Below, in pieces: positions 1 through 6,201 of a DNA stretch of 24,000 nucleotides. The position numbers were made by a program, and so were the translations under genes. The notes under the pieces are model-generated. The model searched no databases and was not told the origin of the DNA. It saw only the letters and a program-made list of their open reading frames with translations. The first letter of the stretch is position 1; each line of letters begins with the position of its first letter. This stretch comes from Candidatus Heimdallarchaeota archaeon (GTDB taxonomy: Archaea; Asgardarchaeota; Heimdallarchaeia; Heimdallarchaeales; Heimdallarchaeaceae): positions 48,101 to 72,100 of the forward strand of contig DXJF01000097.1 in the NCBI GenBank assembly GCA_019057375.1, read 5' to 3'.

Positions 1-371
1 GATCCAGAAGATTTGATGGGACCTAAAATATTAGCATCTTGACCAATTTTTGCAGAGCCACTAAACCTAGCAGAAGATTCGCTCACAAGTCCACCAGATA
101 TACCAAAGGATCCAGAACTTCTAACTGTACCCAAAGAAGTTAAGTTTCCTTCACCTTTTAATGATCCTGAGGTTTTTATTCCAGCACATTTAAAATCTCC
201 AGCAAGTCTTCCTGAACCTGAAATTTTGACAAATTTAGGAATAACTCCACCGGATATATTTGATGATCCAGAGATTTTAACTAAATCTTCTGATTCCTTT
301 AAACTTCCAGCAGAGCTGATTGTAGCTCTCTGTTCAACATTTTCGTTTGTTTCTTTAATTGTTTTTTCCAT
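1..371 (-). CDS. Bactofilin-like polymer-forming protein, partial (C-terminus runs off the window start)
   Basis: Absent from the ORF track because it has no stop inside the window. My minus-strand translation from ATG (371-369) reads MEKTIKETNENVEQRATISSAGSLKESEDLVKISGSSNISGG...KCAGIKTSGSLKGEGNLTSLG...FSGSAKIGQDANILGPIKSSG. This is the same G/S-rich short-period repeat as the gene immediately upstream. It starts 30 nt after that gene's stop. Confidence 0.55.
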   Translation of the reverse strand, partial: MEKTIKETNENVEQRATISSAGSLKESEDLVKISGSSNISGGVIPKFVKISGSGRLAGDFKCAGIKTSGSLKGEGNLTSLGTVRSSGSFGISGGLVSESSARFSGSAKIGQDANILGPIKSSG

Positions 372-401
372 TTATTTCACCTTTCTGTTTCATTATCTTA
401 A

Positions 402-1307
402 TTACAATCTTAGTTTTTCATGGCTTATTTTTACTGGCTCATTAGCTAAATCTGCTCTCTTGTTAACATCTATGTAATCAACATAAAAAACAGTACCTTC
501 TACATTGGTAAATGGTCCAATCTCGACTTTGAGACCTTTAACATCGCCGTCTACATTGGTATTAGCCAAATAAACTTCCCCAGTACCTAAAACATGCCCT
601 TCAATTATTGATTTCTTAAGAGATCGAAATCTTAGACCAAGGAAATCCTTTCCTTTATTGATAAGAATATCATCGCCTACTAAATCACCTTCGACCATAA
701 TTCGTCCAGCCGCTTCAACAATTCCTTGAGATAATAGGTTACCTTCAATTCTAGCAGAACCTGAAAATTTTGCTCCGCTTTCAGCTTGTAAAAGTCCTCC
801 AGTAGTAAAACTACCAGCTGCTACAATTCTGCCTTTGAGAATAGTTTCTAAGCCTACTTTTGTAGAACCTGCGAATTTTGCATCTTGATCTCCATGTAAG
901 AAACCAGCGCACTTAAAAGATCCAGCAGTATTGATGTCTCCATGGGCAGTAATGCTACCATTACTCTTTAGGGAACCAGCAGATTTCAAGTTGTTACATT
1001 CAACATCATTTTCAATTTTTCCAGAACCTGCGATGCGAATATCCTTTCCAACATACCCTCCTGAGATTTTAGTTGATCCAGCAACTGATAGAGATTTATC
1101 AGTTGATACCTTAACTCCTGAAGTATAAATCTGAGAAGCTTCTTTGTGTTGTTCAAAATTTTCTTTAGCATCATCAAGCTTTTGGAGATAACGTTCTTTT
1201 AATTCAACATAGTTTTGTTTATCGATTTCTCCTTTGTCAAACCTCTTTTCCAAGAGTTCTAATAATTCTTCATACATTTTGACTTCGTTTTTAGACAATT
1301 GTATCAC
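402..1307 (-). CDS. Bactofilin-like polymer-forming cytoskeletal protein with an N-terminal SHOCT-like coiled region
   Basis: 301-aa ORF. The N-terminus ELLEKRFDKGEIDKQNYVELKERYLQKL resembles SHOCT-type helices. The remainder is repeated xGSxKxxGxIxxxGDIxxAGS / VEGDLVGDDILI / VEGTVFYVDYIDV units typical of bactofilin beta-helix proteins. Confidence 0.6.
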   Translation of the reverse strand: MIQLSKNEVKMYEELLELLEKRFDKGEIDKQNYVELKERYLQKLDDAKENFEQHKEASQIYTSGVKVSTDKSLSVAGSTKISGGYVGKDIRIAGSGKIENDVECNNLKSAGSLKSNGSITAHGDINTAGSFKCAGFLHGDQDAKFAGSTKVGLETILKGRIVAAGSFTTGGLLQAESGAKFSGSARIEGNLLSQGIVEAAGRIMVEGDLVGDDILINKGKDFLGLRFRSLKKSIIEGHVLGTGEVYLANTNVDGDVKGLKVEIGPFTNVEGTVFYVDYIDVNKRADLANEPVKISHEKLRL

Positions 1308-1465: not shown

Positions 1466-1507
1466 TGGTGCGGGGAGGGAGATTCGAACTCCCGAACCAC
1501 TAAGGAA
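1466..1507 (-). repeat. tRNA-Leu(UAA) 3'-end fragment (CCA, acceptor 3' strand, T-arm, variable arm); distal att-like direct repeat
   Basis: tggtgcggggagggagattcgaactcccga is identical over the first 30 nt to 6073-6102 of the intact tRNA gene. The next 12 nt (accactaaggaa vs actactaaagaa) have 2 mismatches. Similarity then degrades at about 1508. Confidence 0.85.
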
Positions 1508-1525
1508 AGGTGTTTTTTTATCGTG

Positions 1526-1533
1526 TTTAAATA
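1526..1533 (+). promoter_or_regulatory. Possible archaeal TATA box for a leaderless TnpB-like transcript
   Basis: tttaaata is centred about 26 nt upstream of the first ATG (1556) of the ORF, which is the spacing expected for archaeal TATA-to-TSS and a leaderless mRNA. AT-rich background makes this weak. Confidence 0.25.
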
Positions 1534-1555
1534 TCAAATTACAGATATAAAAGTG

Positions 1556-3481
1556 ATGAATTCTGTGCTTGTAAAAGATCTCGAAGAAGAAAAGGAAGTT
1601 CAAAAAACCTATTCCTTAGTTCTTAGATTTCAAAATCTAGCACAAAGAAAAGAAGCTAACCATCGAGTCAGCGATTTAGAAGATAAACAATCACTATTAC
1701 TATATGATACTTCTACTCAAAAAATTGCAAGAGATTTAGCTCGCGAAAATCCAAATGTTTCATTTCCTATTTCTAAAATCCAAAAATCTTCGAGGAGCAG
1801 TTCAAATATCTCTTTCAGTGCTTATAATTGGTTGTTTGCAGCATCAAAAGTGTCTGTTGATAAGGAAAAGAAAGTAGCTGATTTATTCCAGTTTCTGTTA
1901 CAAAATCCACAGCAAGCAATTGAATGGGTGATTCTTGGACGTTCTCCCTATACTGAAATTTCTCTTTCGAAGAAATGGAGAGTAGATTATGTATATGTTA
2001 TAAATCTCTTGACAAGTACTAGACGAAAAACTAACACTTATTGGAAAAAGAATTTTACTATGAGCTTTAAAGAAAAGCAACTAGAGTTCAATTCAAAGCT
2101 TCCAAAGACAACACAATTTGAAGTTGAACAAGCAATACAAGACTGCTATGAAGTAAAGGTAGAAGAGTATGCAAAATTGAAGAAAACTACTGAAAAACAA
2201 TATACTTTTCTTGATAAATTAGCTTTGGTAGTGAAACATAAGTATGTTATAGCTCCATATGTAACTTCTTGGATTAATCTTTCTCAAAAAGCTCGGTGGA
2301 AAAGCTTAAAGCAACTGAGTAAACAACTTGCTGAAACGATTGGTCAAATCAATGAAAAACTCCATTCTACAATAAGATTGATAGTAGTTTTTGCACTCTT
2401 CTCAAAACTGTGGGGGACTGTATCTAAATTAATTGATTCAACTAATCCAGAAGAAGTTGTAAGTTCTCCGTTTGAAAGAAAAAAAGCGAATTTACCAATT
2501 AAAATGTTAATGAAACATGAATATGACATAATTCGACCTGGTAACTCTCAAAAGATGACACAACTTGCTAAAGAACAAGGATGCTTTGAACTTGGATTTC
2601 CATGTAAAGGAAAAAAAAGAATAACAGGTAATCTTCTGTTTACAGAAAAAATTATCGAATATCTGAAAAATGGTGCTAGTGTAAGAATCTTACAAATTAA
2701 AAGTGGAAAAGCTCCTAACTACAAACCCAAGATTTCAGTTGTTCTTCATGGTACTCCTAGCATGTTTGTGAGCACCAAACTAGCACAAAAATATGCTAAC
2801 AGTATGAATCTCACTGCTGCTAATATCTTAGGGCTAGATGTCAATAGAGTAGGAAAACACATGTTGTCGTTCTCTAATGAAGTTCCATTGGATTCTAGAT
2901 TGAGATCTTTATCAAACCATTACCTCTCCTTAACAAGAAAAGAAATTCCAAGATTGAGTAACTCACTAAAAACTAAAGGTAAGCAAAAAGATAGTTATGG
3001 TTATATTAAAACAAAGGGTGAGCTAAATAGGATATATAACAAAAGAACTAATATAATTAAGGAAATTAAGAGAATAATACCACATTACATTGCGGGAGTT
3101 ATTATCAAGAGTAAGTGTAAATTTTTTTGTATAGAAGAGTTTCGTAAGAATCCAAGAGGGAAAAGAGGTGCATTAGCAAAAGCAATATACAACATGCCTT
3201 ACGAAGACAATATTTTTGAAAAAGCAGTCCAGATTGCGACTCACATTCTTAGTTATAAAGTGAAACTTGTATATGTAAGTGCTCGTAACACAAGTAAATA
3301 TCATTATAGTTGTAGAGGTGTGATTCAAAGAGATCTTAAAAATTATGATTATGCTCTCTGTAAAAAATGTGGTGAACGAGTAAATACACATATTAATGCT
3401 GCTAAAAACATTGCGAAGAAAGGAGAAACAATAATAAAGCAAATCAAGCTTCCCCTAGACGCCGCTAAGGGGACGGGGTAA
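1556..3481 (+). CDS. Large TnpB/Cas12-like RuvC-fold protein (putative RNA-guided effector) with a non-canonical RuvC-III motif
   Basis: ORF track 1523..3481 starts at a GTG; the first ATG is 1556. The C-terminal core contains ILGLDVN (RuvC-I), FFCIEEF (RuvC-II), ARNTSKYHYSC...CKKCG (zinc finger) and NTHINAAKNI (RuvC-III signature xxDxNAAxNI, with His in place of Asp). About 430 aa precede RuvC-I. Confidence 0.75.
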   Translation: MNSVLVKDLEEEKEVQKTYSLVLRFQNLAQRKEANHRVSDLEDKQSLLLYDTSTQKIARDLARENPNVSFPISKIQKSSRSSSNISFSAYNWLFAASKVSVDKEKKVADLFQFLLQNPQQAIEWVILGRSPYTEISLSKKWRVDYVYVINLLTSTRRKTNTYWKKNFTMSFKEKQLEFNSKLPKTTQFEVEQAIQDCYEVKVEEYAKLKKTTEKQYTFLDKLALVVKHKYVIAPYVTSWINLSQKARWKSLKQLSKQLAETIGQINEKLHSTIRLIVVFALFSKLWGTVSKLIDSTNPEEVVSSPFERKKANLPIKMLMKHEYDIIRPGNSQKMTQLAKEQGCFELGFPCKGKKRITGNLLFTEKIIEYLKNGASVRILQIKSGKAPNYKPKISVVLHGTPSMFVSTKLAQKYANSMNLTAANILGLDVNRVGKHMLSFSNEVPLDSRLRSLSNHYLSLTRKEIPRLSNSLKTKGKQKDSYGYIKTKGELNRIYNKRTNIIKEIKRIIPHYIAGVIIKSKCKFFCIEEFRKNPRGKRGALAKAIYNMPYEDNIFEKAVQIATHILSYKVKLVYVSARNTSKYHYSCRGVIQRDLKNYDYALCKKCGERVNTHINAAKNIAKKGETIIKQIKLPLDAAKGTG

Positions 3482-3546
3482 ATAAACCCCTCAAGTAAAC
3501 CTAAAGTTTCTACGAGAACCTAGTAAACTTCATTACGTGCGTGGAA
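3440..3546 (+). ncRNA. Candidate omega-RNA/reRNA-like scaffold overlapping the 3' end of the TnpB-like ORF
   Basis: Four G4/C4 tracts lie within 40 nt in an AT-rich context. Hairpin 1 is cccctag(3452-3458)/ctaagggg(3465-3472). Hairpin 2 is gggg(3475-3478)/cccc(3487-3490) and spans the stop codon (3479-3481). The position is analogous to TnpB omega-RNAs. There is no expression evidence. Confidence 0.2.
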
Positions 3547-3558
3547 CGGATGACTTAT
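3543..3558 (-). repeat. Short tRNA-Leu-derived fragment (anticodon-stem 3' strand plus intron start)
   Basis: ggaacggatgacttat compared with copy 2 ggaacggatttcttat (3649-3664) gives 14/16 matches, including a 9-nt exact core. Confidence 0.5.
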
Positions 3559-3610
3559 TATTTTAATAAATAATAGTTAGCTTAGATAAGAAAAATAGAT
3601 TTGAAAAAAT

Positions 3611-3714
3611 TGGTGCGGAGAGGGAGATTCGAACTCCCGAACTACAAAGGAACGGATTTCTTATCTATTCTCTAACCCTTATCTTAGGTTTAAAACTAAG
3701 ATCTTAAGTCCACC
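3611..3714 (-). repeat. Truncated tRNA-Leu(UAA) copy (3' exon, intron, anticodon loop and 5' anticodon-stem strand; no D-arm or 5' acceptor); att-like direct repeat
   Basis: It aligns column by column with 6073-6176 of the intact gene. The exon part has about 3 mismatches in 47 nt. The intron part has about 10 mismatches plus a 1-nt indel in 44 nt. It diverges completely after tcc(a/g)cc. The acceptor 3' strand is mutated (TCTCCGC). Confidence 0.85.
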
Positions 3715-3760
3715 TTGAAACATAAAAGTATTAAAGGTTTAAAAGACAAAATAGGATTAA

Positions 3761-4639
3761 ATGTCTAGTAAAAATTGGGACACTGTAATAGAGTTACTAG
3801 AAACAATCACGCCCTCATATTACTTAGAAAAGGAGCTTAAAGCTACATTCAAATCTAATCTCCAATATAGAATAGGAAAATACTCTGAGAATTGTCGATA
3901 TTTCTTTCAGGAAGGTTTCGAAAAAAAATATTCAAATATTATTCCATCAGCAATAATTGTACCAAGGAAGTCAGGAACTAATATAAGCAAAATCGCAAAT
4001 GAAGCTGTTATATATTTTAAACAAAGCTTGGAATTGTTTAAAACATTGGATAACGTTGAAGAAAATGTGAGTCCATTATTGGAATATTATGGATTATTAC
4101 AATGTGTTAAGGGAGTAGTAATTTTAGAATTAGATGTGAAAAGTGACAAGATATTTAGTAAGCATGGTTTAACTCAAGAAACAAGATTTCATTCAAAAAT
4201 AGATGAACCAAAATCAACAAAAAAATATAAACTAAAAATGATTAAGAGAATTAAGCCATCAAAATATATCAACGCTAAAATTATGCCTTATGGTGTTTTA
4301 ACATCTTTAATCATTCGTTTCACAGATCATTATGATGAACTTTATTCTGACAGAGACATATACAAAATAAGTAAGCATTCTATGGATAAATACGTAACAG
4401 GATACTATAGACCTTCATTAGAAGAAATAACAACCAATCATCATGTAGATCCAATAATTGCTTTCATAGGTTCTTGGATGTTATCAACATTGGTAAGATA
4501 TAAAGCAAAAATGTGGCAAGAAATATGTTTGGGAGAAAAAGATGACATAATAAATAATATTAGAAAATTTAGGAGGGAAAAAATACCTAAAGCAGTAGAA
4601 ACTATGCTAATGGATTATGTAAGAAAGAGCTCTTGGTAA
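3761..4639 (+). CDS. YaaC-like protein (uncharacterised family)
   Basis: 292 aa. The blocks KYSENCRYFFQEG, SPLLEYYGLLQCVKGVVIL, SKHGL and LSTLVRYKAKMWQEI parallel, in the same order, the blocks I recall from B. subtilis YaaC (NCYRFLYYLEHG, PVLLFYGLSQLIKACLL, AHGV, ICRYETEWWSEL). The comparison is from memory. Confidence 0.5.
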   Translation: MSSKNWDTVIELLETITPSYYLEKELKATFKSNLQYRIGKYSENCRYFFQEGFEKKYSNIIPSAIIVPRKSGTNISKIANEAVIYFKQSLELFKTLDNVEENVSPLLEYYGLLQCVKGVVILELDVKSDKIFSKHGLTQETRFHSKIDEPKSTKKYKLKMIKRIKPSKYINAKIMPYGVLTSLIIRFTDHYDELYSDRDIYKISKHSMDKYVTGYYRPSLEEITTNHHVDPIIAFIGSWMLSTLVRYKAKMWQEICLGEKDDIINNIRKFRREKIPKAVETMLMDYVRKSSW

Positions 4640-4721
4640 CAGCTTAAAGAGTATTCATAAGTACTACAAAAGCTTAAAAAATAATGAATGAAAAAGGAAG
4701 GAGAGAAAGGAGGGGAGACAA

Positions 4722-6065
4722 GTGCAAGAGGATAATAGCGAAAATTTAGCTGAGCCAATAGGAATTAAAGAATTAGGAAAGAGAATAATTCTTCTCCCTT
4801 ATCACATTATAAGGCTCATAGTAAATAATGTTTTACTATTTATTTTAGGAAGTATAGAAAATGGAGTAATAATTGTAAGAGCAAAAAAAAGTATCAAGAT
4901 TGAAGAAGGAATAAAAAAACTCATACAGGAAAACGAATGTATTCTAAGAAAAAGTATCTACTTAAAGAAAAACGATAGTATAGACGAGATTAAACCAGAA
5001 GAGGAAGAAGAGCAAGAAGTAAAACGAATAAATGTTTTGAATAGAATAATGGCTATAGTAGTAATTTCAATAGTTTGGTCGTTTCAAATTGTGTTGAGAG
5101 TCATAGTTTGGATATTTATCTTGATTAATTGTTTAACCATTAGAAAGAAAGTAGGTTTAAAGGAGTGGGAAGAGAATAATTTGGGATATTACAGAGAAAC
5201 CATAAAATATCTTACAGGTATTAGTGAAGAAATACCTTTTTGGAAAGAATTAGGTGGTTGGGGCGAAGGTTTATTATTTATATTAGTATTTGATTTGGTT
5301 GTTATTAGGAATGGATTCTTAAGATTGTGTAGGATAATTCTTGGAGATACTTACAGTTATTATTTGATTATTTCGTTAGTATATATCATAATTTTCGTAA
5401 TTCTTATACCAAAATATCTGAAGTTTCCAAGTAAAAGTGGGGAAAGGAAAACTAAGCAAATAGTAAGAAGAATAGGAGTAAAAAAACCAAAAAGTATAGC
5501 AAGGACTCTCTTAATTGTGATTCTACTATTAGCAATTAAATTAGGAATTATTTATGGAATATCCTTGCTAATAGATTATAATGTAGAAAATTTTATTTTC
5601 CCAGTAAATACAGGTTATATAATTGCAGTAAGTATGAGTGCAGGTATTGCTGAAGAAATAATATACAGGGGATATGTAATAGAAGTAACAAAAAGAAAAT
5701 ATGGAACTTTAGTAACTATGATAATTTCAGGGTGTCTTTTTGGACTTGCACATTTTGCGCTTAATCCATCCATTTATAGTTTTGTTCAGATGTTGTTCGT
5801 AACCTTTATAGGAATAACATATGCGTATTTCAGAATTCTATCAGATTCATTGATAGGACCAATAGTCATGCACACAATATATGACATAATTGTACTATCA
5901 GTAGTATATACAACAGAAAAAATACCTGATTATGTCGTGTATTTGATAGCAATTACATTGAGTATTATAATAACAATAATTTCAATTAATTTGCTGAAAC
6001 TAATATACAAAGACAAAGAACTATTGATATTTAAGAAAAGAGGGAAAGAACAGAAGGAAGGATAA
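4722..6065 (+). CDS. Polytopic membrane protein with a C-terminal CPBP (CAAX protease / bacteriocin-processing, Abi) intramembrane metalloprotease domain
   Basis: 447 aa with a GTG start preceded by the purine-rich aggaggggag. There are many hydrophobic segments. The three CPBP motifs occur in order: AEEIIYRGY (EExxxR), LFGLAHF (FxxxH) and MHTIYD (HxxxD/N). Confidence 0.7.
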   Translation: MQEDNSENLAEPIGIKELGKRIILLPYHIIRLIVNNVLLFILGSIENGVIIVRAKKSIKIEEGIKKLIQENECILRKSIYLKKNDSIDEIKPEEEEEQEVKRINVLNRIMAIVVISIVWSFQIVLRVIVWIFILINCLTIRKKVGLKEWEENNLGYYRETIKYLTGISEEIPFWKELGGWGEGLLFILVFDLVVIRNGFLRLCRIILGDTYSYYLIISLVYIIIFVILIPKYLKFPSKSGERKTKQIVRRIGVKKPKSIARTLLIVILLLAIKLGIIYGISLLIDYNVENFIFPVNTGYIIAVSMSAGIAEEIIYRGYVIEVTKRKYGTLVTMIISGCLFGLAHFALNPSIYSFVQMLFVTFIGITYAYFRILSDSLIGPIVMHTIYDIIVLSVVYTTEKIPDYVVYLIAITLSIIITIISINLLKLIYKDKELLIFKKRGKEQKEG

Positions 6066-6072
6066 AGGAAAA

Positions 6073-6201
6073 TGGTGCGGGGAGGGAGATTCGAACTCCC
6101 GAACTACTAAAGAACGGATGGCTCATCTGACTTCTAACCCTTATCTTAGGCATAAACCAAGATCTTAAGTCCGCCGCCGTTGGCCACTTGGCTATCCCCG
6201 C
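6073..6201 (-). tRNA. tRNA-Leu(UAA), class II, with a 44-nt intron at the canonical 37/38 position and encoded CCA
   Basis: Hand-folded. Acceptor GCGGGGA/TCCCCGC; D-stem GCC/GGC with an 11-nt loop; anticodon stem GCGGA/TCCGT; loop CT-TAA-G[intron 6120-6163]A; 13-nt variable region; T-arm GGGAG-TTCGAAT-CTCCC; discriminator A; CCA at 6075-6073. Confidence 0.85.

Follow-up and report, generated by a model that had tools for sequence, protein, structure and literature searches.

We describe a TnpB-encoding unit of about 2.04 kb that interrupts a tRNA-Leu-derived sequence in a 24,000-nt stretch of a Candidatus Heimdallarchaeota genome (contig C47, positions 48101-72100; hereafter the window, to which all unprefixed positions refer). 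The assembly comprises 3.47 Mb with 33% GC and is 89% complete. With somewhat better than even confidence, we regard positions 1508-3542 as a transposase-less module of tnpB and guide RNA that is of IS607 descent, lies in a 3' fragment of tRNA-Leu(TAA) beside the functional gene, and may be maintained there by homing or retention.

A tRNA-Leu sequence split by the unit

The first-pass annotation of the window proposed that a tRNA fragment breaks off and resumes about 2 kb later, and this was borne out. Copy 1 of the fragment (Table 1) matches the 3' end of the tRNA-Leu(CAA) located elsewhere on the contig (C47:14587-14701) at 42 of 42 nt; the similarity ends at 1508, while tRNA-Leu(CAA) reads on as GGAA/CGGATG. 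Directly after the TnpB tail, the tRNA sequence picks up again at 3543-3558 (GGAACGGATGACTTAT). In the tRNA-Leu(TAA) allele of the same-genus genome G007 (locus L120), GAACCACTAAGGAACGGATGACTTATC corresponds to copy 1 joined without a gap to 3547-3558, with 54 nt identical and a single GGAA; the uninterrupted same-genus allele carries ...CCACTAAGGAACGGATGACTTAT... and has 54-nt identity to the rejoined flanks. The allele found in G014, G018 and G024 has one mismatch to 3544-3562 and is equal at 18 of 20 positions over 3543-3562. The 12-mer CGGATGACTTAT occurs once in the whole genome, at the split-tRNA site, and a chance origin of the split, which the annotation had considered unlikely, is therefore excluded. 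These alignments show that the two flanks of the TnpB unit were once contiguous tRNA-Leu sequence, interrupted at the point originally proposed. The left end required only a small correction: GGAA ends at 1507, so that 1508 is the first non-tRNA base. GGAA is present twice in the window (1504-1507 and 3543-3546) and once in the uninterrupted alleles. The second copy of the fragment, which had been described as uninterrupted, is indeed a continuous 3' fragment of about 102 nt including the intron; over 101 nt it is 86% identical to the intact gene, and it shares 88-90% identity with the tRNA of relatives.

The comparison with the other genomes of the genus revealed the corresponding empty site. 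The bactofilin-like gene to the left of the unit and its intergenic flank are present in all 24 other genomes, and 11 of the 11 loci that could be read through to the tRNA run from this left flank to an intact tRNA-Leu(TAA) and then to the flank on the side of an aminoacyl-tRNA synthetase (aaRS) gene, which begins at about 6062 in the window. These empty-site loci are L115-L118, which are close to the window, and the more distant L120, L122, L123, L126 and L131-L133; the left flanks of L115-L118 have 94-95% DNA identity over the BLAST query and about 91-92% over the first 1.5 kb. The stretch from about 1508 to 6072 is missing in the nearest relatives; at all the empty-site loci the two BLAST segments overlap just in the 42-45-nt tRNA 3' end. 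The module was detected in 4 of the 25 genomes of the genus, and the empty site in close relatives of both occupied lineages (G014, G016, G018 and G024 for the window's genome; G025 for L023).

Table 1. Features of the window around the TnpB unit.
Feature	Positions	Strand	Evidence or remark
tRNA-Leu 3' fragment, copy 1 (42 nt: CCA end, acceptor, T-arm, variable arm)	1466-1507	-	
ACTAA, candidate target-adjacent motif (TAM; ACY at -5 to -3 before the tRNA sequence resuming at 3543)	1499-1503	+	inferred
Left GGAA, terminal bases of copy 1	1504-1507	+	read from sequence
Left edge: remnant like the last tnpA codons and tnpB promoter (TTTAAATA at 1523-1530)	1508-1555	+	
tnpB-like gene, 641 aa from ATG 1556 (652 aa from GTG 1523)	1556-3481	+	
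Predicted guide-RNA (omega RNA) scaffold, two hairpins and conserved 3' end ...CTTCATTACGTGCGT	3440-3542	+	conserved in 44 sequences
Guide-position segment, continuation of tRNA-Leu(TAA) (variable arm, anticodon stem 3' strand, intron 3' end)	3543-3562	+	starts with right GGAA
AT-rich spacer, possibly decayed rest of split fragment	3563-3610	+	
tRNA-Leu(TAA) 3' fragment, copy 2 (3' end through intron to anticodon loop)	3611-3712	-	
Second inserted cassette: YaaC-like open reading frame (ORF) 3761-4639; DUF4389 and CAAX-protease-like ORF 4722-6065	3713-6072	+	Pfam
Intact tRNA-Leu(TAA), 44-nt intron	6073-6201	-	Rfam tRNA 44.2 bits; ARAGORN with introns

Family, left edge and guide-RNA scaffold

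In the TnpB-like ORF the Cas12f1-like TNB domain (PF07282) was recognised at 27.6 bits against a cut-off of 26.3, and NF040570 was matched at 28.9 bits, which is under its cut-off of 100. The AlphaFold (AF2) model of the protein (predicted local distance difference test score, pLDDT, 81) had Cas12f/TnpB chains as its top matches with a Foldseek probability of 1.0; Fanzor structures were also matched, and the protein could be aligned to Cas12f/TnpB chains around the zinc ribbon. The RuvC residues D439, E538 and H623 are invariant, the His in 15 sequences. The canonical D-E-D triad was not found: the RuvC-III Asp is replaced by His (CGERVNTHINAAKNI in the window protein versus CGYKVNADYNAARNI in 8hr5). 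Such a replacement has been described as conserved ('rearranged') in a number of TnpB branches, among them archaeal ones with serine-recombinase links (PMC10691335), and the D-E-H site is common to the whole family described below, including its transposase-bearing and multi-copy members.

The family of TnpB proteins of about 650 aa with the D-E-H site comprised 55 proteins and 65 loci, which in the searches made came from metagenome-assembled genomes (MAGs) of Heimdallarchaeia only, one record being labelled Thorarchaeota. The window's genome contains ten paralogues with 43-46% amino acid identity, three of them with an in-frame stop codon in the protein search. When the genome was searched with the DNA of the unit, just partial matches of 64-71% identity to these paralogues were obtained, and the unit is single-copy. 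The annotation had suggested that further copies would define the ends; copies do exist, but because only diverged paralogues are present in the genome, the ends of the unit are not definable from near-identical copies. In other MAGs, tnpB is at many loci directly preceded by an ORF of some 200-220 aa that ends ...SFAGRLHRQRRGK, and these ORFs carry MerR and Resolvase domains and match NF033518 (the NCBIfam IS607 transposase) with 171 bits against a cut-off of 110. Full copies begin AC[C/T]GT...CAATCTT and end ...CATAACGTG[C/T]GT; the C/T alternatives at the left and right ends are concordant in 14 of 14 elements, as expected if the crossover bases are common to both. For one paralogue (C65:38714), the empty site is seen in G014 and G018, where an intact tRNA-Val(GAC) reads ...GAACCGCCGACTTCC..., whereas the occupied site in the window's genome reads ...CATAACGTGCG followed by CCGACTTCC, with the precise junction AC/CG. 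For the window junction, a CG crossover core was considered and fitted poorly, as it would need CG in the tRNA at that point; a GG or AA core would require an extra 2-nt coincidence and gave no clean fit. In many other Heimdall MAGs the contigs break inside or at the edge of the tnpB/tnpA pair (loci L071-L085 and others), which suggests that the elements there are multi-copy and recently active, unlike the 43-46% diverged copies of the genome studied here.

A search with the family TnpA query revealed no IS607 TnpA in the window or in its genome (89% complete). Since the relatives carry an IS607 TnpA and neither this transposase nor the Y1 type was found in the genome, the family is of the IS607 type, and all ten copies in the window's genome are stranded. 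Likewise, because the serine-recombinase TnpA is absent from window and genome, the window unit is a derivative of the IS607 family and not a complete member of it. Its left edge aligns with GAGAAGAGGGATTTTATCGAGTTTAAATA of paralogues and orthologues, a stretch that in full copies is the end of the tnpA reading frame. The caveat that the left-edge bases might be a continuation of the tRNA was thereby removed: they align with the tnpA tail and the tnpB promoter instead. The alignment indicates that the unit is without both tnpA and the left end of the family. The orthologue L021 shares the same left junction in degenerate form (...ACTACTTT followed by GAGAAGAG...), which implies that the tnpA-less state is old.

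The mechanism put forward in the annotation was that of an IS200/IS605 element moved as single-stranded DNA by a Y1 (HUH) TnpA, inserted 3' of GGAA and with a right end that also terminates in GGAA. Such a model would account for a GGAA at either junction against a single one in the empty allele, and an architecture of TnpB and guide RNA is common to IS605 elements. However, we consider it highly improbable. The Y1 TnpA domain (PF01797), for which the annotation had suggested looking because it could act in trans, was not detected in the 3.47 Mb of the assembly (89% complete), whereas six control genomes were positive; no Y1 TnpA was found beside any of the 75 family loci, and the full-length members have a serine-recombinase TnpA, never Y1. 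Moreover, only 15 nt (AGGTGTTTTTTTATC) separate the tRNA piece from the TATA box (1523-1530), leaving no room for a left subterminal hairpin, and the hairpins at the right end belong to the guide-RNA scaffold. Finally, the conserved right end stops 4 nt short of the end of GGAA.

The scaffold of the predicted guide RNA covers the last coding bases and about 60 nt past the stop codon, as seen in the alignment of 44 sequences. It comprises a CCCCT...AGGGG hairpin and a second helix; in addition, the loop of the hairpin (CGCACG) forms a pseudoknot with the CGTGCG at the very 3' terminus. RNAalifold gave the first hairpin only; for the pseudoknot and the remaining helices, the pairs were assigned manually before counting. 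In this alignment 90% of the cells are paired and nine pairs have double changes. The observed covariation score was reached by none of 500 shuffles, and sliding the partners cut the pairing to 23-46%. The pseudoknot is 95.8% paired, with one pair being GC in 33, AU in 8 and GU in 3 sequences, whereas helix 4, being poorly aligned (57% paired), was not relied on. No guide-RNA family of Rfam was matched in the window. At 42 of 53 loci the scaffold ends ...GTG[C/T]GT, and the sequence beyond differs completely between loci. The comparison shows that the conserved part of the predicted scaffold ends at 3541/3542 in the window, which places the right boundary at 3542, within the range originally proposed (3542-3546). 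Since the scaffold stops there, GGAA at 3543-3546 occupies the variable guide position and is not part of a conserved right end. Thus, the claim of GGAA at both junctions stands, but GGAA does not form the last bases of the right end, which stops at GTGCG(T) and is followed by variable sequence across the 53 loci. The possibility that 3543-3558 belongs to the element itself found partial support, as this segment is conserved among four orthologous loci; however, it is variable in the family and matches host tRNA alleles.

Occupied loci, tRNA-like guides and competing histories

Orthologues of the module (L021, L022, L023 and L142), with TnpB proteins 61-62% identical to that of the window, occur in four other assemblies at the same tRNA-Leu site (Table 2). 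They represent two further lineages, 58-60% identical to each other; their reading frames are intact (640-690 aa), and the catalytic and zinc-finger residues are invariant. The three orthologues that have a downstream flank keep [G/A]GAACGGATnnCTT.T past the scaffold, and the window too retains a tRNA-like guide. In these three an AT-rich spacer of about 20-65 nt is followed by a complete tRNA-Leu(TAA); in the window, copy 2 comes after the spacer instead. The divergence of TnpB (about 60% identity) lies between that of the nearby aaRS (78%) and that of the bactofilin-like gene (55-57%). As TnpB has diverged roughly in step with its hosts and the ORF is intact, this points to a module that has long been resident under selection.

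Table 2. Occupied tRNA-Leu loci.
Locus	Shared neighbours	Left tRNA piece	Sequence after scaffold
Window	both neighbours	42 nt	TGGAACGGATGACTTATT
L021	different upstream gene	degenerate	CGGAACGGATATCTTATC
L022	upstream bactofilin-like gene	12 nt	contig ends after scaffold
L023	upstream bactofilin-like gene	16 nt	CAGAACGGATGGCTTCTC
L142	downstream aaRS	none recognisable	CAGAACGGATTTCTTCTC

The window guide (3543-3562) has no mismatches to the G007 allele over 16 positions; over 20 positions it has two to the G014-type allele, five to copy 2 and seven to the intact tRNA of its own locus. Similarly, the L142 guide has 1 mismatch in 20 to the G025 allele and 4 in 20 to its own tRNA, and the L023 guide differs from its own tRNA at 6 of 20 positions, which is near the bottom of the ranking. 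This pattern would fit a homing or retention nuclease, and it would fit equally a split resident allele accompanied by a second, diverged tRNA copy (three lineages). Upstream of the guide match, ACY is found at positions -5 to -3 at 20 of 20 loci of the main clade (AC[C/T]GT), and likewise at the tRNA-Leu site (ACTAA/GGAACGG), at the empty tRNA-Val site (ACCGC/CGACTT) and at tRNA-Ser (ACCAC/TTGAGT), whereas at the candidate-TAM position of the module's own locus the sequence is TGCGT. The annotation had also supposed that a TAM-like motif at the left resembles the right end; this idea has a precedent, though in IS607, where TGGG versus TCGG serves the self/non-self distinction of TnpB (bioRxiv 10.1101/2023.11.20.567912).

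Sequence derived from tRNA occupies the guide position in four independent lineages among about 53 loci (Leu; Val twice; Ser), while tRNA genes make up about 0.1% of the genome. The tRNA-Val guides are those at C65:38714 and C145:90735, and the tRNA-Ser guide is that of L024, with the related L082 beside the same tRNA-Ser. These guides may reflect targeting, or else a better survival of insertions at tRNA hotspots. At locus L013 (G000:C65:38335-40790), a paralogous TnpB with a tnpA 3' remnant is framed by tRNA-Val sequence on both sides: a tRNA-Val(GAC) with an intron lies intact upstream, and the scaffold is directly followed by the 5' 50 nt of an intron-less tRNA-Val(GAC) together with 78 nt of its promoter. 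The intron-less gene is intact at this place in G014 and G018, and the intron-bearing allele is found in G023; the locus looks like an IS607-type insertion in the T-stem (AC/CG) that was rescued by a second tRNA allele. At L012 (G000:C145:90576-92813) the guide position holds the 5' half of tRNA-Val up to the anticodon loop, and at L024:2804-5010 it holds the first 15 nt of tRNA-Ser(GCT) with a promoter-like piece; in both, an intact tRNA is located on the other side.

If the favoured reading is correct, the predicted protein would load an RNA whose 3' end bears GGAACGGAUGACUUAU..., as in characterised TnpB systems, and the ribonucleoprotein would recognise an uninterrupted tRNA-Leu(TAA) allele with ACTAA upstream and a matching intron 3' end. 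The cut allele could then recombine with the occupied one, by which the module would be restored or spread (retention or homing). The window's own intact tRNA would escape cutting, because it differs at guide positions 1, 11 and 14 and from 17 on. If the 42-nt tRNA repeats recombined, the whole insert would be lost and an empty site like that of the relatives would result.

Several observations weigh against this reading. The His at RuvC-III in a predicted nuclease could mean that cleavage is altered or lost. No known transposase reaction would be expected to give a clean junction for a unit without a left end and without tnpA, and the event that placed it here cannot be reconstructed. The left AGGAA may partly be element sequence, namely the remnant of the tnpA tail, which would blur the junction. 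Since the CG/TG core of the family is absent from the tRNA junction and GG or AA needs a 2-nt coincidence, the 4-nt GGAA repeat appears to fit neither that core nor a 2-nt serine-recombinase core and could be matched to no mechanism. The spacer at 3563-3610 is not significantly tRNA-like (z at most 2.2), and the conservation of the guide was seen at four loci from three lineages only. In addition, a complete tRNA adjoins every occupied locus, which simple insertion does not explain, and in no genome examined did a tRNA fragment stand beside the tRNA without the module. This raises the possibility that the module came in a larger block together with the 3' portion of the tRNA.

One alternative builds on the last point, namely that the module is cargo of an integrative cassette which entered tRNA-Leu(TAA) by site-specific or homologous (Campbell-type) recombination, with copy 1 as a displaced or hybrid att repeat, GGAACGGATG... 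as a guide that the element carries and not a flank made by the insertion, and the 3' portion of the element restoring the tRNA. The order of fragment, module, short tRNA-like guide, spacer and complete tRNA at every occupied locus is consistent with this, as are the behaviour of 1508-6072 as one indel between 42-45-nt repeats and the second, integrase-less cassette stacked likewise behind copy 2. Furthermore, the variable arm of copy 1 is CC/GG and that of the closest relatives and the own intact tRNA is CT/AG, and the guides match the alleles of empty-site genomes better than the adjacent tRNA. However, no integrase is present in 1508-6072, a guide starting exactly where copy 1 ends would be an added coincidence under this model but is expected under a simple split, and gene conversion among tRNA-Leu copies could equally have given the allele pattern. 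We regard a cassette origin as rather unlikely. Domestication, in which the host keeps an immobile TnpB either as an RNA-guided guard of the tRNA-Leu(TAA) integration hotspot, which would cut arriving elements with an attachment site that mimics the tRNA, or as a nuclease-impaired binder, is improbable. The single copy, the lack of a transposase, the same locus with intact ORFs over a deep divergence, and the His in place of the RuvC-III Asp would all suit it; however, the module is missing from the closest relatives and from all but 4 of the 25 genomes, the family-wide D-E-H site extends to members that carry a transposase or are multi-copy, and a foreign cassette integrated next to the module all the same. 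Quite improbable, too, is an inert relic, in which gene and RNA would be non-functional and the tRNA-like segment an undecayed flank: although the unit is immobile in the window's genome and decay is seen in the spacers and left fragments of the orthologues, the intact frames of 640-690 aa at about 60% identity, with their invariant catalytic and zinc-finger residues, and the compensatory changes in the scaffold argue against it.

A more far-reaching extension of the favoured reading, which we put forward only tentatively and think doubtful, is that this TnpB lineage does without a transposase and is maintained at a single tRNA gene in the manner of a homing endonuclease gene, with its guide fixed on the variable arm, anticodon stem and intron end of tRNA-Leu(TAA). 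Unoccupied alleles would be cut and the module copied in by recombination along with a substitute piece of the tRNA, immunity would come from variation at the 3' end of the tRNA intron, and the family members with tRNA-Val and tRNA-Ser guides would be parallel cases. If so, archaeal tRNA introns would be tied to a conflict with RNA-guided mobile elements. More generally, if the tRNA guides reflect targeting and not survival bias, they would bear on the old idea that links archaeal tRNA introns and tRNA disruption to mobile elements.

Neighbouring features and known systems

Window positions 3-1307 encode, on the minus strand, two neighbouring bactofilin-like repeat proteins, one of 301 aa and the other incomplete with at least 123 aa; these genes are fast-evolving, with 55-57% identity against 78% for the nearby aaRS. 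The window also encodes eRF1 and intron-bearing tRNAs, which were missed by ARAGORN without the intron option and detected by Rfam and by ARAGORN -i. These features mark the DNA as archaeal, and the names of homologues point to Heimdallarchaeia. The intact tRNA-Leu(TAA) is nearly identical to the G016 allele. The 3' end of its intron varies strikingly even between close relatives (GGATGACTTATTTTTTTT in G014, G018 and G024 versus GGATGGCTCATCTGACTT in G016 and the window's genome), and the variable arm has compensatory CC..GG and CT..AG variants (L115-L133 and the window gene). For the second cassette, none of the 24 further genomes of the genus gave a DNA match, and a Pfam scan of the ORFs in 1508-6072 detected TnpB, the YaaC-like protein, and DUF4389 with CAAX protease only, without any tyrosine or serine integrase. 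Together with the spacer, the split fragment would measure about 101 nt against 102 nt for copy 2, which fits two att-like repeats of one kind, although the resemblance of the spacer to tRNA is not significant.

The locus provides a well-delimited natural TnpB module with a tRNA-gene guide, for which relatives give both empty and occupied alleles, and it supplies a hypothesis on the target and TAM (ACTAA with GGAACGGATGACTTAT; G007/G014 allele GGAACGGATGACTTATT) of an Asgard TnpB of the D-E-H kind. It also shows that tnpB and its guide RNA can persist at one site without a transposase even between hosts in which a neighbouring housekeeping gene has diverged to 78% identity.

Known biology accounts for most of the finding. 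The module resembles the IS200/IS605 elements (ISDra2, IS608), in which TnpB serves as a homing or retention nuclease, in having TnpB and an omega RNA with the right flank as guide, a TAM 5' of the left end, and a predicted target that equals the empty donor site; it differs from them in having no Y1 TnpA and no subterminal hairpins, the partner of the family being a serine recombinase. As in archaeal elements integrated in tRNA genes, tRNA 3' repeats flank the insert, cassettes are stacked and an intact tRNA stands at one end; unlike these, there is no integrase, and the TnpB unit is located inside a repeat and not between repeats. The conserved His at the RuvC-III Asp is shared with the RIIIr TnpB branches of the TnpB/Cas12 census (PMC10691335), which describes archaeal and serine-recombinase-linked branches, whereas solo copies linked to tRNAs do not appear in its text (no 'tRNA'). 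Regarding IS607 elements with TnpB (the Clostridium botulinum IStron, bioRxiv 10.1101/2023.11.20.567912, and Helicobacter pylori IS607), the window unit differs in lacking tnpA and the left end, in its Asgard archaeal host, in its protein of about 650 aa with a large helical lobe and His at RuvC-III, and in an apparent core of CG/TG instead of GG. At the same time, its full-length relatives have, like those elements, a TnpA with MerR and resolvase domains upstream of tnpB, and the scaffold reaches from within the 3' end of tnpB to the right end, with the sequence just past that end as the guide. Moreover, the left-adjacent motif and the right terminus share bases in both (AC[Y]GT versus TG[Y]GT here, TGGG versus TCGG in the IStron), and TGCGT versus ACY at the window module parallels the distinction made by IS607 TnpB between TGGG and TCGG (10.1101/2023.11.20.567912).

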